Source: Bacteroidota bacterium
GTDB lineage: Bacteria > Bacteroidota > Bacteroidia > Bacteroidales > JAAUTT01
Length of the DNA: 64,000 nucleotides
Reading direction: 5' to 3'
NCBI GenBank assembly: GCA_021779665.1
Contig: JAJYAG010000013.1
Span: 4,076 to 68,075, forward strand
Made by a program: the position numbers and the translations under genes. The notes below the pieces were generated by a model that was not told the origin of the DNA, searched no databases, and saw nothing but the letters and a program-made list of their open reading frames with translations. How positions within the stretch are numbered: the first letter of the stretch is position 1; each line of letters begins with the position of its first letter. This document shows positions 3,519 to 15,043 of this stretch, piece after piece.

Positions 3519-3828
3519 TGCGTTTAGGTTTTATAGAAATATAAGGATTGCATAATTAGCCCGAATTAGGTAATTGTAAATGCTTTACTGACTCTTTATA
3601 AAGTTAAAGTGATGAAAGACGTTTGTCAAGTAAATGAGCTTATTTATTTGTTCATCTTTATGTTAAAGAGTGATAAAAACGGATATGTTAACAATGCAGG
3701 ATCGAGTTGGTAAAAGTTAAAAGTAACTCTGCTCTGCGCGAAAGCTGGTTGGTGAGTAGTCTTTAATTTCCGTCTGACAGAATTGAGTTTTTACACTTTT
3801 CGGGGAATATCCGGGGATTTTCAATAAA

Positions 3829-3871
3829 CAAAAAACCCGAAAGCTTGATTTTACTCGCTTCCGGGTTTTTT
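3829..3871 (-). terminator. hairpin terminator downstream of the orphan tRNA-Cys 3' fragment (ancestral tRNA-Cys terminator)
   Basis: ACCCGAAAGC (3835-3844) pairs with GCTTCCGGGT (3857-3866) with one mismatch. A-runs and T-runs flank it on both sides. Confidence 0.45.
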
Positions 3872-3872
3872 A

Positions 3873-3889
3873 TTGAGGTCGATGGCGGA
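3873..3889. repeat. attL core (TTGAGGTCGATGGCGGA)
   Basis: Exact copy of 10366-10382. It corresponds to the last 14 nt of tRNA-Cys plus 3 flanking nt, with no tRNA body attached. Confidence 0.8.
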
Positions 3890-4006
3890 CGCCAAATGTT
3901 TATTTTCTTTATTATTTACCTTTATTGTTAACCCTCTGTAAATACTGAATTATAAGTACATTCAAGTTAAAATAAATTAAAAGGAATTAAAATAAAATAA
4001 GGTTTC

Positions 4007-4026
4007 ACTGAGAAAATACTGAGAAA
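4007..4026 (+). repeat. 20-bp repeat ACTGAGAAAATACTGAGAAA (putative integrase arm-type site, left)
   Basis: Identical 20-mer at 10291-10310 in the same orientation. Each copy contains the tandem CTGAGAAA-ATA-CTGAGAAA. Confidence 0.5.
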
Positions 4027-4063
4027 GTATTAAATTTACATAACTATTGAAATATCAATATTT

Positions 4064-5425
4064 ATGGCAGCAATAAAATATATCGTAAAATCTGTTGAAA
4101 AGAAACGCCTTGCAAGTATTTACTTAAGGTTTGTTTCAAGCAATGATATTAATATTTGGGTTTCCATACCTTTAAAAGTTTACCCTGAATATTGGAGTAA
4201 TAAAAAGGAGGGTTTTATTAATAAGATTGCTTATGATGATCTTTTCACAGAAGCGGAAAAAATAGGGATTGAAAAGGAGCTTAATGATTTAAGGAGCTTT
4301 ATACTTAGCCAATATAACGAGAGCGCAAAAACAGGTTTTACTTTGAATAGAGAATGGTTGAAATCTGTTATTGACAAGTATTTTAATAAACAGGTTGTTG
4401 TAAAAGAAAACCTCAACCAATATATTACCAGGTTCATTAAGGAAATTGAATCCGGCGAACGGCTCTATACTCATAACGATAAAACGAAACGTTATGAAAA
4501 AGGATCAATCAAAAACTTTAAAGGTTTTCAGGTTCAGTTTGATTTATACCAAAGTGAAAAAAGGGTGAAATTAAATTTTGATTCAATCACGTTGGATTTT
4601 TACGACTTGTTTGTAAAGCATTTTATTAAAAAGGATTATTCAGCTAACACCATTGGAAAACACGTTGCACGTCTCAAAACTATAATGAGATGTTCAAAGG
4701 ATGAAGGATTGCACACTTCGCAGGAATTTGAGCGAAAGAAGTTCAAAACCATGAAAGAAAAAGTTGAAAACATTTATTTGACTGAAAAAGAGGTTGGTTT
4801 AATGCAGTCCTTTGATTTTTCAAAGTTGACGCCTGAACAGATTGTTATTATGCAGGAAAACGGAATAACCAACATTAATCATTTAGACATTGCCAGGGAT
4901 GTTTTTTTAGTGGGCGTTTATACGGCTCAAAGATTTTCCGATTTTTCAAAGATCAAACCTGAAAATATTCAGAATAGGCAAGGCGGATTGAAAATTATAA
5001 GCCTTATACAGCAAAAGACAGGCGAAAGGGTAATCATTCCAATAAGGCCGGAATTAGATGTTATTTTGAATAAATACGGGTATAGATTGCCCAAAGTATT
5101 TGAACAGAAAATTAATAAGGCTATCAAGGTTATTGGATCTATTTTGGATATAAACGAACCTACTTTAATTGAGGAAACTAAAGGCGGATTCAAGGTTAAA
5201 AAGACCGTTCCCAAATACGACCTAATTAAAACCCATACCGCCCGGCGGACTGGTTGCACCCTTATGTATTTGGCCGGGGTTCCTACAATTGATATTATGA
5301 AAATATCAGGACATAAAACAGAACGTGAGTTTTTGAATTATATCAAAGTTGGCAAAGAAGAAACCGCCATAAATCTTTCAAAACATCCTTATTTTTTAGG
5401 TAACAATTTAAAGTTAGTAATGTAA
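4064..5425 (+). CDS. int: tyrosine recombinase / integrase (Bacteroidota phage-integrase type)
   Basis: 453-aa ORF. Catalytic-domain motifs are AQRFSD (Arg), HTARRTG (H-x-x-R) and GHKTEREFLNYIK (His...Tyr). The long N-terminal arm-binding/SAM-like region is typical of Bacteroidota integrases. Confidence 0.85.
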   Translation: MAAIKYIVKSVEKKRLASIYLRFVSSNDINIWVSIPLKVYPEYWSNKKEGFINKIAYDDLFTEAEKIGIEKELNDLRSFILSQYNESAKTGFTLNREWLKSVIDKYFNKQVVVKENLNQYITRFIKEIESGERLYTHNDKTKRYEKGSIKNFKGFQVQFDLYQSEKRVKLNFDSITLDFYDLFVKHFIKKDYSANTIGKHVARLKTIMRCSKDEGLHTSQEFERKKFKTMKEKVENIYLTEKEVGLMQSFDFSKLTPEQIVIMQENGITNINHLDIARDVFLVGVYTAQRFSDFSKIKPENIQNRQGGLKIISLIQQKTGERVIIPIRPELDVILNKYGYRLPKVFEQKINKAIKVIGSILDINEPTLIEETKGGFKVKKTVPKYDLIKTHTARRTGCTLMYLAGVPTIDIMKISGHKTEREFLNYIKVGKEETAINLSKHPYFLGNNLKLVM

Positions 5426-6609
5426 TGTACAAGCCAATAAGTATAGATAAAGGCCAATTAAATAGGCCGAAATCCATTGAAAGTTTACATGCCTATTTAA
5501 TGCAGCTTTATAAAGAATATGAAGGTACCCAGTTTGAATTTTGTGAAGTTATATTAGGTGAATGTTTACAAGATATTACCTATTTAGAAGATTTGGAGGA
5601 GAAATTGAAAAATCAACCTCAATCAGATTCCGTTTTTTCTTCTCGAGATAGACACCAGACAGTTAAAGAAAATTTAGAATCAATAAAAGACATTATTCTT
5701 ACTATAAGGAACAATATTATTATTGAATTCGAAAAGTTAATTTACTCTGACAAACTAAAAAAATGGTATGAAATTGCGGGATCCTATGGATATTCTGGTA
5801 AAGGTTATACAGACGAAAACGGGAACGAAAAAATACTTTCAATTTTTCCGGGAAAAGAGAACAAGGAAGATATTTACCTATATAATTTGGAACGTTTGGA
5901 ATACACATACGATGCTTTAAATCCATATTTTAACGATCCTCATAATAACGGGACTATCAAGCCTTTAAAAATGCTCATGGATGACTTTTTATATAAGGTT
6001 GAATCAATGGCATTGCCTTCAAAAGAGCGTTTTACCGGGTTAGAAATTGAAAAATGTATCAAGTCTCAAAAGACCGATTTTTATATAAGTCAATGGAATC
6101 TTTATGGCATTTTAGACCTAAAGAAAATAACTGTGGTTATCGATCCTGTTCATTATATTATGGTTTATTCTACCGAAAAATATTTAGAATTTTTAATGGG
6201 ATATAAAGAAAATGGATATTGTATTAAACTTGAAAAGGAAAACCTCAGTCTGTCAAAGATATATGATGAAGGACTTAAACCAATTCAAGTACAACCCTCA
6301 AAAACATCTGAGAAACTTTCTCACCGGGAAATTGCATTTATTTGTCAGTATGAAGACATTTACCTTGATAAAAATTTAGCAATTGAAAAGTTAAAAAAAT
6401 TTGATCTTCCAATAAGCCCCACATCAGGAAAACAGTTAATAGATGATTATAATAAATTCAATACTCCAAGCCAAAGGACTGCTGAAAACGTGCGAACCGT
6501 TAACGTTATTCGTAAAATATTGCCGTTATTATCTGAAAAGGCTAAATTATTAGCTGAAAGTGAATTGCAAATTGCTATTAATAAGCAAAGTAAAAAAAGA
6601 GAAGAATAG
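5425..6609 (+). CDS. hypothetical protein (ORFan), start overlaps the integrase stop
   Basis: 394-aa ORF. Its ATG shares the A of the int stop codon (TAATG at 5423-5427). I recognise no motif in it. Confidence 0.7.
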   Translation: MYKPISIDKGQLNRPKSIESLHAYLMQLYKEYEGTQFEFCEVILGECLQDITYLEDLEEKLKNQPQSDSVFSSRDRHQTVKENLESIKDIILTIRNNIIIEFEKLIYSDKLKKWYEIAGSYGYSGKGYTDENGNEKILSIFPGKENKEDIYLYNLERLEYTYDALNPYFNDPHNNGTIKPLKMLMDDFLYKVESMALPSKERFTGLEIEKCIKSQKTDFYISQWNLYGILDLKKITVVIDPVHYIMVYSTEKYLEFLMGYKENGYCIKLEKENLSLSKIYDEGLKPIQVQPSKTSEKLSHREIAFICQYEDIYLDKNLAIEKLKKFDLPISPTSGKQLIDDYNKFNTPSQRTAENVRTVNVIRKILPLLSEKAKLLAESELQIAINKQSKKREE

Positions 6610-6700
6610 ATTAATTTTTTAACCAGTTTGTAACCGGTTCTAAACCGGTGCAAGTGATTAAGCGAGTGTAAGTTTGCGTAAATAAATAAAAGAAACGCAA

Positions 6701-6994
6701 ATGGAAAACTCAATTATCTTATCAAATGTAACCCCGGAGCAATTGTATAATGCTTTCAGGGGTATTGTCAGGGAGGAACTTTCAAACCTTAAGCCTACCA
6801 AAGAAGAAACTAAGTACCGCACCCGCAAAGAAGTAAAAGACCTTCTTAAAATTTCATTACCCACACTTAATAGCTATACCCGCAAAGGAATTTTAAAAGG
6901 TTCCCGGATTGGTTCCCGTGTATTGTATTCTGAACAGGATATTGAACAGGCTGTAAAAGATATTCCTGTTTTAAAGTATAGGAGGGTTAAATAA
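6701..6994 (+). CDS. HTH_17 / AlpA-excisionase-like DNA-binding protein
   Basis: 97-aa ORF. The segment RKEVKDLLKISLPTLNSYTRKGILKGSRIGSRVLYSEQDIEQAV fits the MerR-like excisionase/AlpA helix-turn-helix pattern. Confidence 0.65.
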   Translation: MENSIILSNVTPEQLYNAFRGIVREELSNLKPTKEETKYRTRKEVKDLLKISLPTLNSYTRKGILKGSRIGSRVLYSEQDIEQAVKDIPVLKYRRVK

Positions 6995-7263
6995 TGAAAC
7001 ATACACCTTCTATTTTGGAGAATCTTTCCGCCCCTGGCGAATACGAAAAGATACAAAAACGAATTCAAAAACTTCTATTATCAGGTGAAACGTTAACGAC
7101 ATTCACCGGGAATAAATTAGCTCATACCGTTGATTTTAGAAAGGCCGTTTCTGATTTAAGAAGGAAAGGGTTGCCCATACTCGATGCATGGGAAAAGAAC
7201 GGGCGTAAACGCTATAAACGGTATTGGATTAATCCTGAATATATCAAAACATTGGCAAAATGA
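6994..7263 (+). CDS. small winged-helix-like DNA-binding protein
   Basis: 89-aa ORF with a TAATG overlap on the upstream gene. The segment FRKAVSDLRRKGLPILDAWEKNGRKRYKRYWI matches the R-I-x-x-LR-x-x-G-x-x-I...Y wHTH pattern seen in small phage/plasmid proteins. Confidence 0.5.
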   Translation: MKHTPSILENLSAPGEYEKIQKRIQKLLLSGETLTTFTGNKLAHTVDFRKAVSDLRRKGLPILDAWEKNGRKRYKRYWINPEYIKTLAK

Positions 7264-8549
7264 TTGACGGGATTGAATGTTATAACGTGGCCGTTAATAT
7301 TGATGAACTTTTAAAGAATCCATTATTAGAATGGCAATTTAAAGGAAGTGCCACAACAGGCGAAATAAAACAGCATAATTCATCCGTTAAAGGGTTATTC
7401 TTTAGGATTAAGGATGAAAAGGCTGTTAAACTTGCCGGAAGTATTCATAAGTATTTCAATGAAGGGTTATTTAATTCAAACGACTTTTATTTTCTTGACA
7501 TCTGTTTTACAATCAATAAACTTCAATCAGATTTTGATATAAACCTTAAGGAAACAAAGATTAATAATGTTGAATTTGGGGTTAATGTTGAGGTTGATTT
7601 CAACGAACTATCAAAACACCTGGTTAAATATTATTGCGGACATGGGATGAAGTTTAATGACTTGCCCGGCGTTGAGGTTGAATTGTCAAAGTACATTCTT
7701 AAGATTTATAAAAAGTTGCCGAATGTTACCAGGTTTGAAATACATGTGAAAAAGATGCAATATTTATCAGGCCGGAAAGATCCTATTTGCTTAAATGTTC
7801 TTTCAGATCTTTTAACCCCTGAGATATACCCCAAATTAAAAGAAATACTGGTAAGTACTATTGATGATTTATTGTTTATTGAACCGTCTGTTTTAACCAA
7901 TATTAAGGGCGAAAATTCAAACAATTATATGTATTTTGAATATTGGCTAAACCTCAACAGTAATCAAAGAGAATACCACTTAAAACGGTTTAGGGAAATT
8001 GGAGAAAGTACCGGAGGGAATTGGATGCAAAAACGACTAAAAGAATCAGTTTCCCAAAAATGTGATGAACTATTTAACAACCCGGCAAAAGTACCGATTT
8101 TAAGTACTCATTATATTCAACCAGTTTCAAAACATTACCCGGCAAAAGTACCGATTGAAAATAAGAGTACCCGGCTAAAGTACACTTTAGATAAAATGTA
8201 CTTTAGACATCCTGATAAATTAGTTTGTCAGGTTACCGGGATAGATATTTCCATGCAAAAACCAGGTTCAAAGTTTTTATCCATTGTTGGTTTAAAATGG
8301 ATTTATGAAAATGATAAACCAACATTTGAAAGCTTGAAAAAAGAAAGGTTAACACAACGGTGGGAAAATGAACCGTTAAATATTCAGATCCGGGAAATTG
8401 CCCACAACATCCGCAATAAATATTTTAACCCTGGCAATAATCCGAGAAACAACACAAAGAACAGCATCAAAAAAGTATTGCAGCATCCTTCTTTATTCAA
8501 TACACTCGAATTAATAAGACCTGAAAAACGGGCAATTGCCGGAATATAA
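7260..8549 (+). CDS. putative replication initiator (Rep_trans / phage gene-II-like) or Rep-type relaxase
   Basis: 429-aa ORF with an ATGA overlap on the upstream gene. It starts MIDG and contains GSIHKYFNEGLFNSNDF, VEFGVNVEVD and ILKIYKK...TRFEIHVKK. These resemble the GS-x-x-K-x-x-x-G-x-N, RlDla-D and RiYDK...R-x-E motifs of Rep_trans/II-X initiators. There is no P-loop. This is a recollection-based call. Confidence 0.45.
   Translation: MIDGIECYNVAVNIDELLKNPLLEWQFKGSATTGEIKQHNSSVKGLFFRIKDEKAVKLAGSIHKYFNEGLFNSNDFYFLDICFTINKLQSDFDINLKETKINNVEFGVNVEVDFNELSKHLVKYYCGHGMKFNDLPGVEVELSKYILKIYKKLPNVTRFEIHVKKMQYLSGRKDPICLNVLSDLLTPEIYPKLKEILVSTIDDLLFIEPSVLTNIKGENSNNYMYFEYWLNLNSNQREYHLKRFREIGESTGGNWMQKRLKESVSQKCDELFNNPAKVPILSTHYIQPVSKHYPAKVPIENKSTRLKYTLDKMYFRHPDKLVCQVTGIDISMQKPGSKFLSIVGLKWIYENDKPTFESLKKERLTQRWENEPLNIQIREIAHNIRNKYFNPGNNPRNNTKNSIKKVLQHPSLFNTLELIRPEKRAIAGI
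8080..8183 (+). repeat. iteron-like direct repeats inside the rep ORF
   Basis: ACCCGGCAAAAGTACCGATT occurs at 8080-8099 and 8137-8156, exact and 57 bp apart. A third partial copy, ACCCGGCTAAAGTAC, is at 8169-8183. GTAC(A)CTTTAG x2 follows. Confidence 0.6.
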
Positions 8550-8575
8550 TTTGTAAACAACAAAACATCAAAACA

Positions 8576-8869
8576 ATGGGATTACAAAAAGGAAAGACAA
8601 ACAACCCCGCCGGAAGGCCGACAGGATCCTTAAACAAACTTTCAAAAGATCTTAGAAAAAATATAACTGATTTCTTAGAAGAAAATTTTGACGTTGTAAA
8701 ATCAGAATGGCAGAAACTTGAAGGAAAGGACAAACTTCAATTTTATAAGGATCTTATTCAATATGCTATTCCTAAAATGCAAACAATGGAATTTCAATCC
8801 GAATTCGAACGTCTATCGGATGAAGATTTAGACCGGATTATAAATGAATTAAAAGGAGGTGCAAAATGA
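8576..8869 (+). CDS. small basic protein with N-terminal NPAGRPTG motif
   Basis: 97-aa ORF. The N-terminus KGKTNNPAGRPTGSLNK resembles N-termini of some phage small-terminase-like/DUF5681-like proteins. This is a weak recollection. Confidence 0.55.
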   Translation: MGLQKGKTNNPAGRPTGSLNKLSKDLRKNITDFLEENFDVVKSEWQKLEGKDKLQFYKDLIQYAIPKMQTMEFQSEFERLSDEDLDRIINELKGGAK

Positions 8870-9099
8870 ACCGGAGCGAAAAAATTAAAATCTTACATGA
8901 TATAAAGGAAGGTAAGGCCAATATTGAGGACTTACACGAAACTCTTTTGGATTATTCAAAAATGACAGACGATGAGTTGAGAAAGGCTCTCCATTATACT
9001 GAAATTTATAATTTGCAGGATCCTTCTCTTATATTGCCTGATGATGCATTCGAGTTTTTTATTTACCTGAAAAATAAATATGGCTATGCGAAAAAGTAA
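8866..9099 (+). CDS. small hypothetical protein, paralog 1
   Basis: 77-aa ORF with an ATGA overlap on the upstream gene. Its N-terminus RSEKIKILHDIKEGKANIEDL is shared with the next two ORFs. Confidence 0.55.
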   Translation: MNRSEKIKILHDIKEGKANIEDLHETLLDYSKMTDDELRKALHYTEIYNLQDPSLILPDDAFEFFIYLKNKYGYAKK

Positions 9100-9340
9100 G
9101 ATCACAATTTTAGAGAGTATTAAGAAGGGCGCAATGCCATTAGCCGTCTTATCTTTCGAAACGGGTAATTATATCCGAATTCCAAATACTGCGAACTATA
9201 AACTAATGAATAAAGATGTAGTTTTCAGCTATCAGGAATTAATAAAGATAGCAGAAAATGAATGTTTTGAAATCCTAAACCCTTTATTTTCGACCGATAG
9301 CGAGAAATTCCCTTTTTGCATTACAATTACAACCAAATGA
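9080..9340 (+). CDS. small hypothetical protein, paralog 2
   Basis: 86-aa ORF overlapping the previous gene by 20 nt. RKSKITILESIKKGAMPLAVLSFETGNYIRIPN aligns with paralog 3. Confidence 0.55.
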   Translation: MAMRKSKITILESIKKGAMPLAVLSFETGNYIRIPNTANYKLMNKDVVFSYQELIKIAENECFEILNPLFSTDSEKFPFCITITTK

Positions 9341-9693
9341 AAATTAATACAATGGATAGACAAAAGAAAATTGAATTGTTGCAACAAATAGAATCCGGCG
9401 AACTTCCTTCCAATATTCTAAATATAGAACCGGGATTGTATTTGCGAACCGATGAGCCGAATATTTACCGAAATCAAAAAGGCTATACTTTAAAATATCC
9501 TGATGTTATCCAACAAAGTAAAGTACTTTCTTTATTATGCGAAATAACAAACATCACAGGCGAACATACACCCGCTTTCATTCGTGTAATGCCTTTCCCG
9601 GTTGGCTGGATAGAGCAAAAGGAATATGCTTCAATGGAAATGCCAACAGAAGAAAGGGCGAATTCAATGGCAAAATTTTGGAATATGGAATAG
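9337..9693 (+). CDS. small hypothetical protein, paralog 3
   Basis: The track ORF starts at 9316. The ATG at 9337 gives an ATGA overlap with the upstream stop. RQKKIELLQQIESGELPSNILNIEPGLYLRTDEPN aligns with paralog 2. Confidence 0.55.
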   Translation: MKINTMDRQKKIELLQQIESGELPSNILNIEPGLYLRTDEPNIYRNQKGYTLKYPDVIQQSKVLSLLCEITNITGEHTPAFIRVMPFPVGWIEQKEYASMEMPTEERANSMAKFWNME

Positions 9694-9708
9694 TATTATT
9701 TTTCAATC

Positions 9709-10203
9709 TCAATAGTAAATATCATCATTCTCAGCTCTCCTTTGCTTAATATCAGTTATATACTCTAATTCACCTCCAAGTAGCTTTGCAATATTTAGCA
9801 TTTCAGTAAATGATTCCCGATACCCTGATGATTTAATACCTTTATTTTCTATTCTAAAAAAATCAACCTTATACGTAAACATACCTGATTGCGCTCCAAG
9901 TGGTGAATAAACTTTCCCGGTAACAATAATACAGCTATCCTTTATAACAAAATCTAAAGAGCAATCGCAATCAGATTTATTTATATGTTTCTTGCCGCTT
10001 CCAATAGTGTAAAATTCTTTATCCTTATTTGCTATTTGAAAATCATTTTCAATCAAAGTTTGTCCGACTTTAAGAAAGTTATCGTCTTTCGTAAGGTTGT
10101 TTTTAATAATAATCTTATAGGTTCCTTTTGGCGGTTCCTGAGCGGAAATGCAAAATACATTCAATAGAAAAATGATCAGGATTAAAGTTGAATAGGTTTT
10201 CAT
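9709..10203 (-). CDS. secreted hypothetical protein (only minus-strand gene of the element)
   Basis: 164-aa ORF with N-terminal signal peptide MKTYSTLILIIFLLNVFCISAQ. It lies next to attR and converges on the small-gene array. Confidence 0.65.
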   Translation of the reverse strand: MKTYSTLILIIFLLNVFCISAQEPPKGTYKIIIKNNLTKDDNFLKVGQTLIENDFQIANKDKEFYTIGSGKKHINKSDCDCSLDFVIKDSCIIVTGKVYSPLGAQSGMFTYKVDFFRIENKGIKSSGYRESFTEMLNIAKLLGGELEYITDIKQRRAENDDIYY

Positions 10204-10290
10204 AAAGTAAGGTTTTGCACTAAAATTAACCCTTAAAATTTACAAAATCAAATTACGCTGGGAAATTACTTGACCGAAGAAAATCTACTA

Positions 10291-10310
10291 ACTGAGAAAA
10301 TACTGAGAAA
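10291..10310 (+). repeat. 20-bp repeat ACTGAGAAAATACTGAGAAA (putative integrase arm-type site, right)
   Basis: Identical to 4007-4026 and in the same orientation. Confidence 0.5.
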
Positions 10311-10322
10311 ATTCATGAAATG

Positions 10323-10360
10323 AAAAACCCCGTTAGCTTATTTTACGGGCTTCCGGGGTT
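10323..10360 (-). terminator. element-borne hairpin terminator following the reconstituted tRNA-Cys
   Basis: AACCCCG (10326-10332) pairs with CGGGGTT (10354-10360). On the minus strand a T-run follows. The sequence is homologous to the hairpin at 3829-3871. Confidence 0.45.
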
Positions 10361-10365
10361 CATTG

Positions 10366-10382
10366 TTGAGGTCGATGGCGGA
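10366..10382. repeat. attR core (TTGAGGTCGATGGCGGA)
   Basis: Exact copy of 3873-3889. It overlaps the T-stem 3' strand, acceptor 3' strand and discriminator of tRNA-Cys. Confidence 0.8.
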
Positions 10383-10439
10383 TTCGAACCGCCGTAAACG
10401 GTTTTGCAGACCGCTGCCTAGCCACTCGGCCAACCGACC
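10369..10439 (-). tRNA. tRNA-Cys (anticodon GCA)
   Basis: The reverse complement folds as a 71-nt cloverleaf. Acceptor GGTCGGT pairs with ATCGACC. The anticodon stem is GCGGT/ACCGT with loop CTGCAAA. The T arm is GGCGG-TTCGAAT-CCGCC. The discriminator is U73, as expected for tRNA-Cys. CCA is not encoded. Confidence 0.9.
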
Positions 10440-10457
10440 ATTTTTACTTTGGGTGTG

Positions 10458-10465
10458 CAAAGATA
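10458..10465 (-). promoter_or_regulatory. Bacteroidota -7 promoter motif (TATCTTTG) for tRNA-Cys
   Basis: The minus strand reads TATCTTTG, matching TAnnTTTG. It lies 19 nt upstream of the mature tRNA 5' end. Confidence 0.4.
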
Positions 10466-10588
10466 TAAAAAAAATAATTACTTCCTAAGGTAGGTGTTAG
10501 GTTTTTAGGAGTTCAGGCTTTAGGCCTTTGTTTGTCAAATTCAGTAATCCCCTGGAAGTGCATTTTCCTAAAGCCTAAAGCCTATAAC

Positions 10589-10795
10589 CTAAATCCCTAA
10601 GTCGCTATTTCTTAATTGTTCCTTATTTTCTGCAAATTCTTTCAAACATTCCGGGCACAGACAATTATCCCAGGTTTTGCGGATATAATAGAGGTTTTTG
10701 GGCAATATCTGGTATTGTTCGCACCAGCAATCTTCGCCCATACACTTAAATCCGGTGCCACATTTGGGGCATTCTTTATTTTTTGGAGTCGACAT
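10589..10795 (-). CDS. cysteine-rich CWC-family small protein
   Basis: 68-aa ORF containing CPKCG...CMGEDCWCE...CLCPEC, the pattern of the cysteine-rich CWC family. Confidence 0.55.
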   Translation of the reverse strand: MSTPKNKECPKCGTGFKCMGEDCWCEQYQILPKNLYYIRKTWDNCLCPECLKEFAENKEQLRNSDLGI

Positions 10796-10836
10796 TTTTG
10801 TAATATTTTATATGTATTTGAAATACAGTCCTTTAC

Positions 10837-10976
10837 CTCGTCTAAAAAAGGTACGAGGCTGTGTGAAAAATTTGGAAAGACTTCGACTACGCTCAGTCTG
10901 ACTGTTGACAATCTGCTGTTTGTCATATTGAGCGGAGTCGAAATATGACTGAGAATTGACTTTTCACACGGCCTCG
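10837..10976. repeat. compound three-tier palindrome (structured RNA or MITE/REP-like element)
   Basis: The outer arms are 10854-10869 and 10961-10976 (16 bp, one G-T). The middle arms are 10883-10895 and 10929-10941 (13 bp, one mismatch). The inner pair is GACAA/TTGTC at 10907-10924. A competing hairpin CCTCGT/ACGAGG lies at 10837-10858. Confidence 0.6.
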
Positions 10977-10987
10977 TGAGGCTCTTT

Positions 10988-11338
10988 CTATCTTTCATAT
11001 TCAACACTTACACTTCTTATCTGGCCGCCCATGGGAGGATGAAGCTTGGCAATCTTTATGGTCGCTTTCTTTAATTGCGGGAAATTCTGATACAAAGCAT
11101 CCATAACTCTTTTAGCAATATTTTCAAGCAGGTTCGACCTGATCATCATCTGTTCCTTTACAATGTTATAAGCATGATGATAGTTGAGTGCATCGCCAAT
11201 ATTGTCACTTTGCGAAGGTGTTGTAATATCGGTTTCCATAACAAGATCTACCAGAAATTTATTACCTACAATTTGTTCCGCCTCATAACAGCCGTGATAG
11301 GCGAAAAACTCCATTCCTTCTATGCGTATCAGTCCCAT
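10988..11338 (-). CDS. folB: dihydroneopterin aldolase
   Basis: 116-aa ORF. It reads MGLIRIEGMEFFAYHGCYEAEQIVGNKF...; its length and pattern are typical of FolB. Confidence 0.8.
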   Translation of the reverse strand: MGLIRIEGMEFFAYHGCYEAEQIVGNKFLVDLVMETDITTPSQSDNIGDALNYHHAYNIVKEQMMIRSNLLENIAKRVMDALYQNFPQLKKATIKIAKLHPPMGGQIRSVSVEYER

Positions 11339-11345
11339 ATAAATT

Positions 11346-12767
11346 TTAAAATATGCTATAAGAACAGCTTAAGTTAAAAGAAGTAGCAAAATTATTCTTT
11401 TTTATTGTTTCTGTCATCACTTCGGAGTTGCTTCCGCCATATCTTAAGCCTAAAGTGTAATTAATATTAAACCTTTCCGAAAGATATAAATATCCATTCA
11501 GCCAAAGAGTTACATTATAAACCAGGTCCGTAGATACATTAGAGGTACTGTTTTTCGGTTTTACCCATTCCTTTTGAATATTCGGATTAAGCGATAATAC
11601 ATGATATGATCTCGAGTCGGGATAAAATCCATAACCCCAGTTAAAGTTGAGGTAAGCCCATTCGTTGTTTAAAGTTTCTTTGGTTGTCGGTGAATTTTTT
11701 TCTTCACGGGTATTTTTTACATCAGCAATCCTGTAACCCGTTTCAAGTCGGATGCTGCGTTGCCACTTCAGATTTATCGGCTTTTCAAAGTCGCCAAGTA
11801 TAGAGATCCCCAATCCATTATTAAAGCTGAAGTTTTTCTCGGCCGATAAATGGTTATTAATCGAATAGCCAAGGGAGGGGCCCATACCTATTGAAAATCT
11901 GTTTCCCGAAACTCGCCAGGGATTGTTTGCATACCCCCAGTTGTCAATTATACCTGAGAAATAAACAGCATTCTGTGCGCCGCTAAATCCGTTATCTCTG
12001 ATAAAACTATCAAGCGCCTGTATCTCATAAATCCTTCTTTTTCGCGCGTCGAAATGGCGCTTATTTCTCAGCTGTGTTATTTTGGTCGCAAATGCCAGGA
12101 TGTCCTCGTCCGAAATAGCTTTTGCGAGTTGATTATTCTTTTGTAAATCTTCCAGAATGAAAATGGCCATCCTTGCGTCTTCAACATTCTCCAGTCGCCC
12201 TAATCCAAATCGTACAGGCAGGGAAATATTGCTGTATAGGGTTCTTTTATCCTCTGTAAATTTGGTGGTAATATTACTTGAAGTGTTTTCCGATTTATAG
12301 TTTTGGAGCGATACATCAACAAAACCAACAGGATTTATCTCGAAAAACATATTCCTTCTGAAGTATAATCTGTTTTCCGAATTGAAGTTAAAAGCAGCAT
12401 TGTAAGTATTGTTCGTTAATTTCGATTGGGAGGGATCGGTAATCTTATTTTGCCGGTTGAAGGTAGATAAATAGTTATTGGGCTTTATCTCCAAATTAAT
12501 GAATGTTTGTTTTTGGATTTTTCTGGTGTTTTGAATTGAGGAATAATCAAGTTTGAGATTCGGATAAATGTTTGTTGTATGACTATGAGCGTCTTCTGAA
12601 TCCTTATTGTTTTCTTCGTATCCTCCATTTATAAATCCCGAGAAATCCAACATACGCCTGGAATAATCGGCTGTTTTATACTTCGATAAATCGAACGAAT
12701 TGAATTGAGCATGAACAATGGTTGTGCAAAAAAGCATTGCAATCAGCGAAAGAATTGATAATTTCAT
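11346..12767 (-). CDS. hypothetical outer-membrane beta-barrel-like protein
   Basis: 473-aa ORF. It has a signal peptide ending VHAQ, alternating-hydrophobic segments rich in Y/N/S, and a C-terminal aromatic residue (YSIF). Confidence 0.6.
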   Translation of the reverse strand: MKLSILSLIAMLFCTTIVHAQFNSFDLSKYKTADYSRRMLDFSGFINGGYEENNKDSEDAHSHTTNIYPNLKLDYSSIQNTRKIQKQTFINLEIKPNNYLSTFNRQNKITDPSQSKLTNNTYNAAFNFNSENRLYFRRNMFFEINPVGFVDVSLQNYKSENTSSNITTKFTEDKRTLYSNISLPVRFGLGRLENVEDARMAIFILEDLQKNNQLAKAISDEDILAFATKITQLRNKRHFDARKRRIYEIQALDSFIRDNGFSGAQNAVYFSGIIDNWGYANNPWRVSGNRFSIGMGPSLGYSINNHLSAEKNFSFNNGLGISILGDFEKPINLKWQRSIRLETGYRIADVKNTREEKNSPTTKETLNNEWAYLNFNWGYGFYPDSRSYHVLSLNPNIQKEWVKPKNSTSNVSTDLVYNVTLWLNGYLYLSERFNINYTLGLRYGGSNSEVMTETIKKNNFATSFNLSCSYSIF

Positions 12768-12964
12768 AACGGTTAGATTTAGGTTATTCTTTGGAATTGT
12801 AAATGATTTATAAAAAGTTAAGCTTCCAAAAATTATTCCGTTTCTAAGAATAATTTATCATGTATATTTGATGTTTAATAAAATTGATGAACTTCAGCCT
12901 TTAAAATTAGAGGAATAGATTGAAAAAGCGATATAAATATAAAAATTGTTAAAGTTTACTTTAC

Positions 12965-14686
12965 ATGGAAATTTCGGACGATAAGAAGATAGGTGATAAG
13001 GAACTTGAATCAAAAAATTTCATTCATAATATTATTGAAGAAGATATCCGTACCCAAAAGTATGGCGGAAGGGTTCATACGCGTTTCCCGCCGGAACCTA
13101 ACGGGTACCTGCATATAGGTCATGCCAAGTCTATTTGCCTTAACTTTGGCACTGCCACCAAGTACAACGGCAAGTGTAACCTGCGTTTCGACGATACCAA
13201 CCCTGCCAAAGAGGATACCGAATATGTCGATTCCATTAAGGAAGATGTTCATTGGCTTGGTTTCGATTGGGAAGGCCGCGAGTTTTATGCAAGCGACTAT
13301 TTTGAAACGCTTTACGAATATGCCATAAAACTCATAAAAAAAGGTAAGGCTTATGTTTGCGACTTAAGTCAGGAAGAAATGGGCGCTTACCGCGGAACGG
13401 TGACTCAGCCGGGTAAGGACAGTCCTTACAGGAACCGCTCAGTTGAAGAAAATCTTCATCTCTTTGAGCAGATGCGCGCCGGAGTTTTTCACGACGGCTC
13501 CAAAGTTTTACGTGCCAAAATCGACATGGCTCATTCGAACATGCTGATGCGCGACCCGATTCTGTATCGCATTCTGCATACCGATCATCACCGTACCGGC
13601 GACAAATGGTGTATTTATCCCATGTACGACTTTGCCCATGGCCAGAGCGATTCCATTGAAGGTATCACCCACTCGCTCTGTACACTGGAGTTCGAAGTGC
13701 ATCGCCCGCTTTACGATTGGTTTGTCAAAGAACTTGAAATATATGCGCCGCAGCAGATCGAATTTGCACGATTAAACCTTACATATACCGTGATGAGCAA
13801 ACGTAAGCTGCTTACCCTGGTGAAAGAAGGCATAGTAAGGGGATGGGACGATCCGCGGATGCCAACCATTTGCGGTTTACGCCGTCGTGGTTACACTCCC
13901 GAAAGTGTGCGGAACTTTGCTGAAAGGGTAGGGGTTGCCCGCCGCGATCAGGTAATTGATGTTGCTCTGCTTGAGTTCTGCGTTCGCGAAGACCTGAACA
14001 AGAAAGCTAAACGCGTAATGGGCGTTTTTAATCCGTTAAAAGTTACTGTAACCAATTATCCCGAAGGTCAGGTTGAATGGCTCGAAGCCATCAATAACCC
14101 GGAGGATGAGACGGCTGGAACCCGGCAGGTGCCCTTTAGCAGGGAACTTTATATTGAACGCGACGACTTTATGGAAAATCCTCCTAAAAAGTTTTTCCGT
14201 CTCGCTCCCGGTGCTGAAGTGCGTTTACGCTATGCTTATTTCCTGAAATGTGAAGAAGTAGTAAAGGATACTGAAGGTAATGTTATAGAGTTGAAATGCT
14301 CCATCGATCCTGCATCAAAAGGAGGAAACTCTCCCGATGGCCGCAAAGTAAAAGGTACCATTCACTGGGTTTCGGCTAACCATGCGCTTAAGGCCGACGC
14401 AAGATTGTACGACAGACTGTTTTTGAAAGAAGATCCGGAAGATACAGGTGAGGACTGCGATTTTAAAGTCAATCTCAACCCTGAGTCTCTTGTTGTTAAA
14501 GAGTGCTATGTAGAACCTTTCCTGAAAGATGCTCAGAAAATGGATAAAATTCAATTTGAACGTATTGGTTATTTCTGTGTCGATCCCGATTCTACTGCCT
14601 CGAAACTGGTATTTAACCGCACGGTCACGTTAAAAGACAGTTGGGCAAAGATCGCAGGAAAAGAAGAAGGTGCTGATAACAAGTGA
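12965..14686 (+). CDS. glnS: glutaminyl-tRNA synthetase
   Basis: 573-aa ORF with class I signatures LHIGHAKS (HIGH) and VMSKR (KMSKS). The overall pattern is GlnRS-like. Confidence 0.9.
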
Positions 14687-14777
14687 TTAAAAGCCTGATT
14701 TTAATTTTTTCTATGATATAGCTAAGAAGCTGCTAAATTTTTTTTCAAAAAATGAGTACAACATATATTTTTTCAAT

Positions 14778-14785
14778 TAAATTTG
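14778..14785 (+). promoter_or_regulatory. Bacteroidota -7 promoter motif (TAAATTTG) for tRNA-Gln
   Basis: Matches TAnnTTTG and lies 14 nt upstream of the tRNA 5' end. The extended TTTGCAGCT-TTAAA context recurs at 48846. Confidence 0.4.
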
Positions 14786-14798
14786 CAGCTCTTAAAAT

Positions 14799-14871
14799 TG
14801 TCCTGTGGTGTAATTGGCAACACGTCAGATTCTGGATCTGAATAGTCCAGGTTCGACCCCTGGCAGGACAA
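14799..14871 (+). tRNA. tRNA-Gln (anticodon CTG)
   Basis: 73-nt cloverleaf. Acceptor TGTCCTG pairs with CAGGACA, giving U1-A72 as in bacterial tRNA-Gln. The anticodon stem is TCAGA/TCTGA with loop TTCTGGA. The T arm is CCAGG-TTCGACC-CCTGG. Confidence 0.9.
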
Positions 14872-14879
14872 CAACTCTG

Positions 14880-14912
14880 AACCCTTTCAATTCAATTTGA
14901 AGGGGTTTTTTA
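14880..14912 (+). terminator. rho-independent terminator after tRNA-Gln
   Basis: An 11-bp stem joins AACCCTTTCAA and TTGAAGGGGTT (one G-T). A TTTTTT run follows. Confidence 0.7.
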
Positions 14913-15043
14913 TTTGGATGAATTTTTCTTTTAGATGCTAACCAACATATCCGTTTCAAATGATGCCTAAATTTGATAACTTGCATTTGGTTTAATCCTG
15001 AAACAATCGCAAATACGAAGCAACTACTCAAAATATTAACTTA

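Follow-up and report, generated by a model that had tools for sequence, protein, structure and literature searches.

A 6.5-kb mobile element at a tRNA-Cys gene of a Bacteroidales bacterium, tentatively read as a helper-dependent rolling-circle replicon

INTRODUCTION

What is the AT-rich insert that lies against a tRNA-Cys gene in this Bacteroidota contig, and what carries it from one host to another? An earlier note, made from the letters alone, took it for a discrete integrated element, either a phage satellite or a minimal integrative mobilisable element (IME), and posing these two alternatives was reasonable. Several questions are raised by this view. How did the insert enter the tRNA gene without depriving it of its terminator? 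Which of its proteins could replicate it? Does it stand alone, or does it have relatives from which its vehicle can be guessed? Here, we address these questions by analysis of the window, that is, the whole 64-kb stretch of DNA examined, and of related loci in public genomes and metagenomes.

INTEGRATION AT THE 3′ END OF tRNA-Cys

The landmarks of the insertion are as follows:

3827-3874, minus strand: native tRNA-Cys terminator hairpin (inverted repeat), chromosomal, just outside the element
3873-3889, no strand: attL core, exact 17-mer, an orphan copy of the tRNA-Cys 3′ end with non-tRNA sequence downstream
4007-4026, plus strand: candidate integrase arm-type sites, int-proximal arm, two ACTGAGAAA with an 11-bp period; exact copy of 10291-10310
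10291-10310, plus strand: candidate integrase arm-type sites, tRNA-proximal arm; exact copy of 4007-4026
10323-10364, minus strand: element-supplied replacement terminator hairpin for tRNA-Cys (fold and U-run)
10366-10382, no strand: attR core, exact 17-mer
10368-10439, minus strand: tRNA-Cys(GCA), integration target (ARAGORN; Rfam, 60.5 bits)

The 17-mer TTGAGGTCGATGGCGGA has exactly two copies in the window, at the two att cores, and two matches were obtained in none of 100 shuffles. ARAGORN and Rfam agree on an intact tRNA-Cys(GCA) on the minus strand, and the right copy is thus the 3′ end of this tRNA; past the left copy the sequence diverges from the tRNA, as expected of the orphan fragment that the earlier note had described. 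The insert between them (3890-10365) has a GC content of 32.5% against 40.2% in the rest of the window and is its lowest-GC 6.5-kb stretch, which bears out the AT-richness that had been noticed by eye. The empty site proposed as a check was found in a related genome (L439), which has the same tRNA-Cys/CWC/folB/glnS synteny and a glutaminyl-tRNA synthetase 85% identical to that of the window. Since the exact repeat at the tRNA 3′ end, the empty site and the AT-rich composition all point the same way, the insert is almost certainly an integrated mobile element. It entered by site-specific recombination of a 17-bp attP core with the 3′ end of tRNA-Cys.

Both copies of the repeat extend imperfectly leftward into a terminator-like hairpin. 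That at 3827-3874 has a folding energy of −24.3 kcal/mol (z −6.6) and, read on the minus strand, leads into a U-run; in the empty site its counterpart, to which it aligns at 84.6%, stands immediately next to tRNA-Cys. That at 10323-10364 (−16.7 kcal/mol, z −3.2) also has a U-run; the attP of circular relatives likewise shows a hairpin and then the core, as at the 10323-10382 end. Insertion thus pushed the native terminator of tRNA-Cys aside and brought a replacement.

Just within both ends lies an exact 20-bp direct repeat, ACTGAGAAAATACTGAGAAA, which the earlier note does not mention, and the 9-mer from which it is built has only four copies in the window, all at these ends. The 20-bp repeat is kept at both ends of a sister element (L092), and three circular relatives have comparable tandem motifs on either side of attP.

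GENES OF THE ELEMENT

The element holds 10 ORFs, not the eleven counted in the earlier note, whose own blocks add up to ten:

4064-5425, plus strand: tyrosine integrase, 453 aa (Pfam Phage_int_SAM_5 and Phage_integrase above gathering score; phrog_1, 1.7e-24)
5425-6609, plus strand: integrase-overlapping ORFan, 394 aa, variable slot for cargo or an excision accessory (homology searches)
6701-6994, plus strand: HTH_17 excisionase/AlpA-like DNA-binding protein, 97 aa (PF12728, 6e-8; excisionase PHROGs)
6994-7263, plus strand: small winged-helix-like protein, 89 aa (weak HTH_39/HTH_91, 0.04; phrog_4973, 8e-5)
7260-8549, plus strand: Rep, putative nickase, 429 aa (AF2 fold, Foldseek, invariant residues)
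8080-8206, no strand: putative origin within rep (iterons and hairpin)
8576-8869, plus strand: p97, small helical protein (N-terminal motif KGxTNNPxGRPxG invariant in the family alignment)
8866-9099, plus strand: p77, small copy-specific gene (no family matches)
9080-9340, plus strand: p86, small protein, paralogue of p125 (blastp against p125, 1e-5)
9316-9693, plus strand: p125, small protein (ORF; 113 aa from an ATG at 9352 in the public annotation)
9709-10203, minus strand: secreted protein or lipoprotein, 164 aa, accessory gene at the attR end (N-terminal hydrophobic signal, Cys at position 18)

The translational coupling claimed for these genes was measured as 1 shared nucleotide for int and the ORFan (TAATG), 1 for the HTH_17 and winged-helix genes and 4 for winged-helix and rep, and as 4, 20 and 25 along the series p97, p77, p86 and p125. 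The integrase retains all six catalytic residues (R290, K318, H391, R394, H417 and Y426), which are invariant across 23 family integrases. The HTH_17 protein is kept in 22 of the 24 delimited family elements; the winged-helix assignment stands on weak matches, and its slot is occupied by a family of ~140 aa in 12 relatives. The ORFan has no match in Pfam, PHROG, NCBIfam or PDB, gave a single non-significant match (SIR2, E 0.017) in PADLOC and stands alone among 5.8e9 protein clusters; the sister element, 86-93% identical, has an unrelated 400-aa gene in its place.

The small genes after rep had been taken as packaging-related, a proposal that gained no support: p97 matches DUF5681 weakly and below threshold (5.5e-4), its AF2 model is poor (pLDDT 63.7) and no terminase link was found. 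Its gene follows rep in at least nine relatives, including all three circular contigs. In the sister element, the region 8880-9090 (p77) has no counterpart, p86 and p125 are 53 and 58% identical, respectively, and the 164-aa protein, which has no family or PDB match, is 86% identical. Among the genes of the element no capsid, portal, tail, lysis or large terminase gene and no relaxase, coupling-protein or T4SS gene was detected, in agreement with the earlier note, nor was any terminase, capsid-remodelling or anti-repressor gene.

Rep AND A PUTATIVE ORIGIN

No sequence model of Pfam, PHROG, NCBIfam or PDB matches Rep, and in 11 members scanned its region has no Pfam match; 3905 cluster representatives are related to it at E<=1e-3. 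In the AF2 model (pLDDT 83.8), an N-terminal part of ~205 aa with a TBP fold is joined by a disordered linker (277-318) to a conserved helical C-terminal domain. Foldseek relates this model to TBP in PDB (E ~6e-4, with a modest TM-score of ~0.4) and, as the best viral match in BFVD, to an Inoviridae Rep (1.3e-5); solved Rep_trans structures are absent among the 50 PDB matches listed. Rep_trans enzymes combine a TBP fold with an R-x-Y-x-K / R-x-E strand motif. The invariant residues of Rep are S61, H63, E105, N109, K148, Y150, K152, R158 and E160, of which K148-Y150-K152 and R158-E160 follow, by motif analogy, the RepDE pattern R189-x-Y191-x-K193 and R212-x-E214. From this predicted fold with its modest TM-scores and this motif analogy, no sequence profile joining the families, Rep is probably a rolling-circle initiator or nickase, and it may be a divergent Rep_trans-type nickase of the TBP fold with Tyr150 as the nucleophile. 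The Rep_trans likeness proposed earlier is thus upheld at the level of remote fold and residue pattern, not by any HMM or PDB sequence match.

The iterons, previously placed adjacent to the initiator gene, are actually inside it: three copies of ACCCGGC(A/T)AAAGTAC lie at 8080-8099, 8137-8156 and 8169-8183, with a hairpin whose 10-bp stem is formed by CTAAAGTACA (8175-8184) and TGTACTTTAG (8197-8206). The DNA fold of this region has a z of −4.1. Iterons and hairpin are identical in the sister element, the spacer between them carrying indels. Of 24 elements, 8 have lineage-specific repeat pairs at the matching relative position of rep, against 1.5 expected (P~1e-4), in a zone picked post hoc, after the data had been seen.

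A WIDESPREAD FAMILY

The core of int, variable gene, HTH_17, small protein and Rep was found repeatedly across Bacteroidota, and the element belongs to a very large, unnamed and undescribed family, with 64 genome and 80 metagenome loci. Twenty-four elements including this one (5.4-13 kb) could be delimited, at nine tRNA species. Three relatives are circular contigs of 5.0-6.3 kb with an intact attP, from a general metagenome collection; such circles are equally compatible with a plasmid-like state, and tandem integrated copies may also assemble as circles. Between the window and the sister locus, the element backbone is 85-100% identical and the flanks are 71-84% identical.

Two relatives (L113 and L111) carry a TerS gene and a tape-measure-like gene after rep, and another (L083) an Ant/Bro-N anti-repressor gene; phage-type genes were seen in only these three of ~30 relatives examined. 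In a viral contig (L088), a distant Rep N-domain is fused to HNH beside TerL, portal, protease and capsid genes. IMG/VR holds 11 loci with Rep relatives, all in larger contigs and none a stand-alone element, and a search of viral contigs for the att core gave nothing related.

WHAT CARRIES THE ELEMENT?

As neither capsid, packaging nor conjugation machinery is encoded, the element must be carried by something else. We tentatively regard it as an intact, helper-dependent integrative rolling-circle replicon, with a phage judged the most likely helper; that a phage is the vehicle is held at somewhat less than even confidence. The lean toward phage comes from a layout like that of PICMI satellites, the TerS, tape-measure-like and Ant genes of relatives, the viral context of the Rep N-domain and the absence of a canonical relaxase anywhere in the family census. 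In the proposed process, Int acting on the arm repeats and steered by the HTH_17 protein would excise a circle, the int-overlapping gene perhaps also directing excision as in PICMI. Rep would then bind the three iterons within its own gene and nick at the adjoining hairpin to drive rolling-circle replication, the products of which would be packaged by the phage helper, making the element a minimalist PICMI-like satellite.

The same genes could serve an IME, in which Rep, after excision, would be a relaxase, MOBT-like (Rep_trans-type), that uses the iteron and hairpin region as oriT, and the single strand would leave via the mating pore of a co-resident Bacteroidota conjugative element. Tn916, ICEBs1, ICESt3 and streptococcal IMEs that have little else indeed use Rep_trans proteins as relaxases; an integrase, an excision protein and one nickase make up a minimal IME layout, conjugative transposons of Bacteroidota mobilise small tRNA-integrated elements (NBU1, NBU2) in trans, and a hairpin with flanking repeats is as plausible an oriT as a replication origin. 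However, MOBT relaxases have been described only in Firmicutes, paired with a dedicated FtsK/pCW3-type coupling protein, whereas the 24 delimited elements gave neither a coupling protein nor a relaxosome accessory, and the known Bacteroidetes IMEs all have canonical MobP or MobV relaxases. Iterons situated within an initiator gene more often mark a replication origin, that of pT181 lying inside repC, and the phage-type extras of relatives point the opposite way. Mobilisation by conjugation seems rather unlikely.

Could the element do without a dedicated helper? An integrative plasmid, at times resident at the tRNA site and at times a rolling-circle episome, would be inherited mostly vertically, and its spread by transformation, vesicles or generalised transduction would be a matter of chance alone. 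Integration, excision, replication and an origin cover every recognisable function, the circular 5-6-kb contigs come from a general metagenome collection, and the smallest relatives (L099, 5.4 kb) stop right after rep, leaving no room for helper-interaction genes. Yet the family is very widespread, at nine or more tRNA species in several orders, and the element is far better conserved than its flanks between two hosts, which together indicate efficient horizontal transfer; moreover, no Rep was found in 72,556 catalogued plasmids, and some relatives carry TerS or Ant. We consider such a plasmid improbable. A filamentous, inovirus-like prophage is suggested by the Inoviridae Rep that comes first among the viral fold matches, and inovirus genomes resemble the element in size (6.5 kb) and in a run of small genes after rep, but a Walker A motif is missing from every protein and hence there is no Zot/pI-type morphogenesis ATPase, and the same-strand small proteins lack the transmembrane segment that coat proteins would be expected to have. 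Against a decayed, immobile remnant stand the exact att copies and arm repeats, the 10 intact ORFs, the catalytic residues of the integrase and the closeness of the sister element. Prophage or remnant, this reading is very improbable.

COMPARISON WITH KNOWN SATELLITES

The preferred reading of a phage-helped replicon is best set beside the known satellites. The PICI/PICMI-type layout claimed in the earlier note is only partly upheld: the element fails the membership tests for both PICMI and PICI, although its likeness to PICMI is closer than had been claimed. Gene for gene, both have int, an int-overlapping variable gene, alpA, a small gene, a replication gene and a small gene within ~6 kb, and the variable int-overlapping gene of the element mirrors the iolg of PICMI. 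The family may be the Bacteroidota equivalent of minimalist phage satellites.

Insertion Site and Boundaries of the Element

The interval between 3873 and 10382 holds a discrete, intact element at the 3' end of a tRNA-Cys gene, a member of a very large Bacteroidota family that has circular forms and bears signs of recent transfer. The 17-mer that bounds it occurs exactly twice in the window, and two matches were seen in none of 100 shuffled sequences. An intact tRNA-Cys(GCA) gene was located by both ARAGORN and Rfam at a position that makes the right copy of the 17-mer the 3' end of the tRNA, and the left copy runs on into unrelated, non-tRNA sequence; the exact repeat, the tRNA copy and the orphan copy described in the earlier note were thus reproduced. 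No other Rfam match was found in the interval. Windowed GC content, which that note had suggested computing, confirmed that the interval is AT-rich, with 32.5% GC between the two copies against 40.2% in the rest, the lowest value of any 6.5-kb stretch in the window. The ORFs overlap as had been described, but ten of them fill the interval, the figure of eleven having been a miscount. The features that delimit the element and the junctions expected on its excision are as follows.

3827-3874: hairpin left of attL
3873-3889: left copy of the 17-mer TTGAGGTCGATGGCGGA, attL core
4007-4026 and 10291-10310: 20-bp repeats, candidate arm sites, ACTGAGAAAATACTGAGAAA
10323-10364: hairpin at the right end of the element
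10366-10382: right copy of the 17-mer, attR core
10368-10439, minus strand: intact tRNA-Cys(GCA)
Expected attP junction of the excised element: ...CTTCCGGGGTTCATTG-TTGAGGTCGATGGCGGA-CGCCAAATGTTTATT...
Expected attB junction after excision: ...CTTCCGGGTTTTTTA-TTGAGGTCGATGGCGGA-TTCGAACCGCC...

Relatives with an empty tRNA-Cys site, for which the earlier note had proposed a search, do exist. The empty site was located via GlnRS and the att 17-mer: by the window GlnRS, which is 72-73% identical to those of Lentimicrobium and Bacteroidales MAGs, the host belongs with Bacteroidales-like Bacteroidota, and scanning with the 17-mer revealed 13 Bacteroidia genomes with a tRNA-Cys sharing the same 3' end, each with a hairpin terminator directly next to it and none with element genes near the tRNA-Cys. 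The peptidase of the left flank gave no such route, its best match being only 36% identical and in unrelated phyla. The closest of the 13, a Bacteroidetes MAG (L439), retains the gene order tRNA-Cys/CWC/folB/glnS, with GlnRS 85%, FolB 75% and a small Cys-rich protein 71% identical. Because its hairpin and tRNA end align with window 3826-3889 (84.6% alignment identity), the hairpin left of attL (-24.3 kcal/mol) is the native terminator of the tRNA, displaced by 6.5 kb, and the hairpin at the right end (-16.7 kcal/mol) is a replacement supplied by the element. A tRNA-3'-end direct repeat, an intact integrase gene beside attL and an empty site in relatives are the features by which a tRNA-integrating tyrosine-recombinase element is recognized, and all three are present here.

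The flanks offer some further observations. A 68-aa Cys-rich protein is encoded between tRNA-Cys and folB (10589-10795, minus strand; Pfam Cys_rich_CWC in the public annotation), and its conservation in the empty-site genome indicates that it is chromosomal and outside the element. On the other side, about 270 bp of non-coding DNA (3560-3826) extend from an M28 peptidase gene to the displaced hairpin; this flank differs both in L439 and beside the sister element L092 (GntP permease and a shorter M28 peptidase), so that relatives do not share synteny on the side of attB that faces away from the tRNA. The displaced native hairpin (3826-3889) is 95% identical to a hairpin inside the right end of L092 (13594-13658) and less similar to the right-end hairpin of the window element itself, which suggests that hairpins have been swapped between chromosome and elements, by crossovers outside the 17-bp core or through successive occupants of the site.

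Integrase, Excisionase-Like Protein and Candidate Arm Sites

Both Phage_int_SAM_5 and Phage_integrase match the 453-aa integrase above their Pfam thresholds, and among PHROGs it matches phrog_1 (1.7e-24); a search of PDB sequences with it gave no match. Decayed catalytic residues, named in the earlier note as a sign of a dead remnant, are not seen: all six (R290, K318, H391, R394, H417 and Y426) are present and invariant in an alignment of 23 family integrases. The 97-aa protein encoded downstream is of the HTH_17 excisionase/AlpA type (Pfam 6e-8). The exact 20-bp repeat lies 37 bp upstream of int and again 55 bp from the attR core; each copy consists of two 9-mers 11 bp apart, and all four copies of the 9-mer in the 64-kb window lie in these repeats, which are candidate arm-type integrase sites. 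Integrase, arm sites and the HTH_17 protein would together mediate excision.

A Family of Elements and its Circular Forms

Scans with an alignment of the replication protein (Rep) identified 64 loci in GTDB genomes (Spirosomataceae, Bacteroidales, Flavobacteriales, Chitinophagales, Saprospiraceae, Pedobacter and Chryseobacterium), 80 in metagenomes and 11 in IMG/VR. A direct repeat of 13-25 bp corresponding to a tRNA 3' end delimits 23 of these loci, the targets being tRNAs for Cys, Leu, Thr, Arg, Glu, Gln, Phe, Met and Ser. The delimited relatives measure 5.4-13 kb, mostly 5.4-7.4 kb, and a tandem motif of about 9-13 bp lies near both ends in at least 13 of the 23. The gene order is conserved across the family: integrase, one or more variable genes, HTH_17, a small protein and Rep, often followed by a gene of the p97 family (p97 being the 97-aa protein encoded after rep) and then variable cargo. 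The small-protein slot is occupied by a family of about 140 aa in 12 loci and by an 89-aa winged-helix protein in the window element. A large share of the 'hypothetical' islands of Bacteroidota could be annotated at once from the Rep family.

L092 sits in the same tRNA-Cys of a related host, and its proteins are 86-93% identical to those of the window element; it differs in an unrelated 400-aa gene after int, in lacking p77 and in an additional 216-aa reverse gene. The backbone DNA of the two is 85-100% identical (95-100% over 7271-7630), against 71-84% for the flanking chromosomal genes, which argues for recent horizontal movement.

Three metagenome contigs (L185, L196 and L233) have terminal overlaps of 123, 102 and 79 nt, giving circles of 5296, 6267 and 5005 bp, respectively. 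All three encode integrase, a variable gene, HTH_17, Rep and a p97-family protein, and two of the three also the small protein of about 140 aa. The attP region of each circle reads tandem arm motif, hairpin, a core resembling a tRNA 3' end, about 110 nt, tandem arm motif and int, which is exactly the junction predicted from the joined ends of the window element; the core of L196, TTGAGGTCGGTGGCG, resembles the end of tRNA-Cys. Tandem integrated copies could in principle assemble identically. The window element itself was not found as a separate circular contig, all three public contigs with ORF2, the 394-aa gene that overlaps int, being large chromosomal ones. Rep is absent from PLSDB, and among phage records it occurs in one unannotated 28-kb 'Bacteriophage sp.' entry; the att core 17-mer has 12 matches in IMG/VR, none related to the Rep family.

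Two groups of loci stand somewhat apart. In the isolate assembly of Spirosoma panaciterrae DSM 21099, a separate 5864-bp scaffold (L096) carries the variable gene, HTH_17, the protein of about 140 aa and Rep, with neither an integrase match nor overlapping ends; an episome and a copy collapsed as a repeat are both conceivable. A distant branch in Chryseobacterium (L143-L154), Riemerella and Bergeyella (P0107, P0117 and P0120) has HTH_17, the protein of about 140 aa and a shorter Rep (309-365 aa) in a different genomic context, with two proteins of about 1150-1220 aa encoded upstream and no adjacent integrase.

Rep, a Probable Divergent Relative of Rep_trans

Searches of Pfam, PHROG, NCBIfam and PADLOC found nothing for the 429-aa Rep, and in 11 members scanned against Pfam, including ten long or divergent ones, the Rep part matched no model. 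Homologues are nevertheless plentiful, most of them unnamed and any with a source name called 'hypothetical'. Searched with a Rep profile, 1.84 billion cluster representatives yielded 3905 matches at E<=1e-3, with 2063 of them reaching E<=1e-30, a family of about 3,900 representatives at 50% identity. A 54-sequence profile found nothing among PDB sequences at E<=10 and no similarity to the solved RepDE and RepSTK1.

Structure prediction with a fold search was another step proposed in the earlier note. In the AF2 model of Rep (pLDDT 83.8), residues 1-205 form two beta-alpha-beta4-alpha repeats, residues 277-318 are a linker without order, and helices make up the C-terminal domain. Foldseek matched the model to TATA-binding proteins (TBPs) in the PDB (E 6e-4 to 2e-3, probability 1.0, with a modest TM of about 0.4) and, among viral models, to Inoviridae Rep on top (1.3e-5); the same Foldseek pattern has linked the archaeal Rep-Arvir to Rep_trans (PMC13107129). 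The predicted model thus has the crescent-shaped, TBP-like duplicated beta-sheet that characterizes the Rep_trans catalytic domain, at a TM of about 0.4. In Rep_trans this domain of TBP topology has its tyrosine, flanked by R189 and K193, on an inner-face strand; in RepDE the strand after it bears R212-x-E214, and a third strand bears D142 (PMC4797284). Invariant in Rep are K148-x-Y150-x-K152 (strand 145-153), R158-x-E160 (strand 156-163) and E105/N109 (strand 103-110), which parallel R189-Y191-K193, R212-E214 and D142 of RepDE by motif order and predicted strands; D3 is nearly invariant. From the model and this pattern we conclude that Rep is probably a TBP-fold nickase, a divergent relative of Rep_trans. 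The label 'Rep_trans-like' was right in spirit, but Rep is no detectable member of PF02486, and neither Phage_CRI nor the solved structures are matched by its sequence. With Rep, the TBP-fold nickase superfamily, so far known from Rep_trans, Phage_CRI and the archaeal Rep-Arvir, would reach a further phylum.

A Candidate Origin within rep

Three iterons, ACCCGGC(A/T)AAAGTAC, lie at 8080, 8137 and 8169 in the DNA coding for the disordered linker of Rep, followed by a perfect 10-bp inverted repeat (8175-8184/8197-8206) with a 12-nt loop; the region folds with z = -4.1. Iterons and hairpin are identical in L092, where the stretch corresponding to 8159-8218 is 98% identical and indels fall in the spacer between iterons 1 and 2. 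Direct-repeat pairs of 16-24 nt occur at 0.6-0.7 of the rep length in 8 of 24 delimited elements, with lineage-specific sequences; 8 of 54 repeat pairs thus lie in a zone that makes up 2.8% of the sequence, where 1.5 would be expected (P ~1e-4, for a zone picked post hoc from the same data). The pattern resembles an initiator-specific origin, a function that it may well have. Tyr150 of Rep would nick at the intragenic hairpin, and rolling-circle replication would follow.

Variable Genes and Cargo

When all ten proteins were scanned against Pfam, PHROG, NCBIfam and PADLOC, the only signals were those of the integrase and HTH_17 and weak ones for wHTH/DUF5681, with no significant defence match. 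ORF2 (5425-6609) has no homologue among 5.8e9 clusters, and PDB sequence searches with it and with the reverse-oriented p164 gave no match. In L092 the slot of ORF2 (8148-9350) holds the unrelated 400-aa gene within a backbone of near-identical proteins, and across the family the int-coupled slot is filled by many unrelated domain-less proteins, including seven int-adjacent families without a Pfam domain. The slots beside int and at the tRNA end turn over between near-identical elements and are places to seek new defence or host-interaction genes; in relatives they hold MmeI-type restriction-modification, PIN, DUF3800 and surface proteins.

In a census by Pfam of 106 non-core proteins from 24 elements, MmeI-type restriction-modification was found in three elements, Bro-N and Terminase_2 in one each, together with DUF3800, DUF6932, PIN, HTH_3, GNAT and HIRAN domains, surface-repeat proteins and Por_Secre_tail. 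The Bro-N protein (L083) matches anti-repressor Ant PHROGs. Two Larkinella members of 12-13 kb carry MmeI-type (type IIL) restriction-modification cargo (L105, 13013-16459; L107, 12520-16011).

A role of p97 as small terminase was considered and dropped. In 50,697 phages, tblastn found weak matches only (best E 0.05), one to a hypothetical protein encoded next to the integrase gene of Bacteroides phage BKO1-TP3 and one to a DUF5681 protein of a Pseudomonas phage that is not adjacent to the terminase. Its AF2 model is too poor for a fold search. p86 (9080-9340) and p125 (9316-9693) are weakly paralogous to each other (24% over 84 aa, E 1e-5), and by eye they have an N-terminal K-I-x-x-L-x-x-I-x-x-G motif in common with p77 and a small protein of the circular L196; p86, p125 and p77 look like a small tandem gene family.

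Mode of Transfer

By what vehicle does the element move? We tentatively favour a phage helper, which would make it a satellite. Terminase_2 (3.2e-26) is encoded two genes after rep in L113, followed by a 1124-aa protein with tape-measure matches (TMP_3 below the Pfam threshold; PHROG at ~1e-16 for a census member taken to be the same protein), and this module (10992-15341) recurs in L111 (5324-8035) as rep, a 91-aa gene, the Terminase_2 small terminase and the 1124-aa tape-measure-like protein, in Spirosomataceae/Runella. Large terminase, portal and capsid genes were found in neither L113 nor L111. On a tailed-phage contig (L088, IMGVR_UViG_3300039008_000349, 3896-11432), a distant Rep N-domain (29% over 244 aa) is fused to an HNH nuclease upstream of three small genes and then TerL, portal, protease and major capsid. 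The fuller reading, held with more reserve, is that of a first recognized phage-satellite family in Bacteroidota, consisting of minimalist PICMI-like tRNA islands of 5-13 kb in which a TBP-fold, Rep_trans-related nickase of a type not modelled before would take the place of a primase and act on an origin in its own gene, rolling-circle products would enter helper capsids and the int-coupled slot would hold fast-swapping excision-control or anti-phage cargo. The helper capsids would be tailed-phage heads or possibly filamentous particles.

Rep_trans proteins double as MOBT relaxases in Firmicutes, which leaves room for a MOBT-like conjugative mobilisation through Rep; no relaxase domain was found in the ten element proteins, which sets the element apart from canonical IMEs with their MOB relaxase and oriT, and relaxase, coupling protein, T4SS, capsid, portal and large terminase are all absent from the 25 Pfam families listed in the census. 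No self-transfer genes were found in the window element. Conjugative mobilisation is a less likely vehicle than a phage helper, and movement with no dedicated helper is rated the same; other readings are improbable. An inovirus prophage, which the top viral match of Rep might bring to mind, is an unlikely reading, since the element encodes neither a protein with a Walker A motif, as in a Zot/pI-type ATPase, nor a coat-like transmembrane protein, the same-strand small proteins having no transmembrane segment.

The literature search found no phage-satellite family described for Bacteroidota, which dominate gut, freshwater and soil communities and whose small mobile elements, as far as they are known, are mobilisable transposons that carry canonical relaxases. 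Cultured carriers exist in Runella, Emticicia, Spirosoma, Larkinella, Arundinibacter, Fibrella, Lacihabitans and Pedobacter, among them Runella zeae DSM 19591 (L106), Runella defluvii DSM 17976 (L108), Emticicia aquatica CECT 8858 (L132), Arundinibacter roseus (L099) and Spirosoma fluviale DSM 29961 (L116), so that satellite and mobilisable element can be told apart directly by experiment.

Comparison with Known Systems

NBU1 and NBU2 integrate at tRNA 3' ends. Like the window element, they and Tn4555 are small Bacteroidota elements with a Bacteroidetes-type tyrosine integrase, and their transfer requires a helper, but they carry a canonical MobP/MobV relaxase and oriT, with a primase as well in NBU1, genes that the window element lacks; the known Bacteroidetes IMEs (NBU1/2, Tn4555, Tn4399) all have canonical MobP/MobV relaxases (PMC5704250).

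Rep shares with Rep_trans, Phage_CRI and MOBT proteins (RepD/RepC of pT181-type plasmids, CTXphi RstA, Tn916 Orf20) the predicted TBP-like two-repeat beta-sheet fold and a hairpin with repeats as candidate origin. On its predicted strands it parallels them by motif, with a tyrosine between basic neighbours on an inner-face strand (K-x-Y-x-K against R-x-Y-x-K), R-x-E on the strand that follows and an acidic residue on a further one. It differs in having no profile match to PF02486 or solved structures, in its conserved C-terminal domain, in the position of the candidate origin inside the linker-coding part of its own ORF and in the host phylum. The Foldseek outcome, TBPs and inovirus Rep, is like that of Rep-Arvir (PMC13107129).

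Site-specific integration is also combined with a rolling-circle initiator, the role predicted for Rep, in two other kinds of element. The pSAM2-type elements of actinomycetes integrate site-specifically and amplify the excised circle by a rolling-circle initiator, with an HUH Rep and an FtsK-like transfer protein. RS1/TLCphi are helper-dependent satellite filamentous phages built on a Rep_trans/Phage_CRI initiator, which lack an integrase of their own and rely on host XerCD to integrate at dif. VEIMEs, the virion-encapsidated integrative mobile elements of marine bacteria, are small and integrase-bearing, some of them integrated in Flavobacteria, often with AlpA and excisionase and sometimes with plasmid-like replication genes (bioRxiv 10.1101/2022.07.26.501625); they are defined by concatemers from virus particles, whereas the window element is known from sequence. 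No description of phage satellites or Rep_trans elements like it was found in the literature on Bacteroidota.

Among the satellites proper, head, packaging, primase and capsid-size hallmarks of PICI, cfPICI, P4-like elements and PLE have no PHROG or Pfam match in the window element, which by its gene content falls outside PICI, P4 and PLE. The hallmarks in question are a primase-replicase together with TerS or capsid-morphogenesis genes in PICI, capsid genes in cfPICI, alpha, sid, psu and delta in P4, and the genes peculiar to PLE. The closest likeness is to the PICMIs (phage-inducible chromosomal minimalist islands) of Vibrionaceae. PICMI115, of about 6 kb, carries int, the int-overlapping iolg, alpA, up1, primase and up2, and is packaged as concatemers in full-size capsids; its iolg slot, required for excision, is filled by 13 unrelated families of unknown function (PMC10803314). 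Size and gene order agree position for position: int, an int-overlapping gene of many unrelated families, an AlpA/HTH_17 protein, a small gene, a replication gene and small accessory genes, and neither kind has capsid-remodelling or packaging genes. The integrase and AlpA-type protein (PF05930 or PF12728) that help to define PICMIs are present, but no DUF3987/DUF5906 primase was found in the ten proteins, a predicted TBP-fold nickase standing in its place, and integration is at the 3' end of tRNA-Cys instead of beside fis, in another phylum; the element is therefore PICMI-like on paper but not a PICMI. Helper dependence and concatemer packaging have been shown for PICMIs, whereas the window element is known from its genes. 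It is a variation on known kinds, a minimal satellite or IME with a predicted initiator related to the Rep_trans superfamily, and calls for no new category; its type is widespread, unannotated and testable in cultured carriers.
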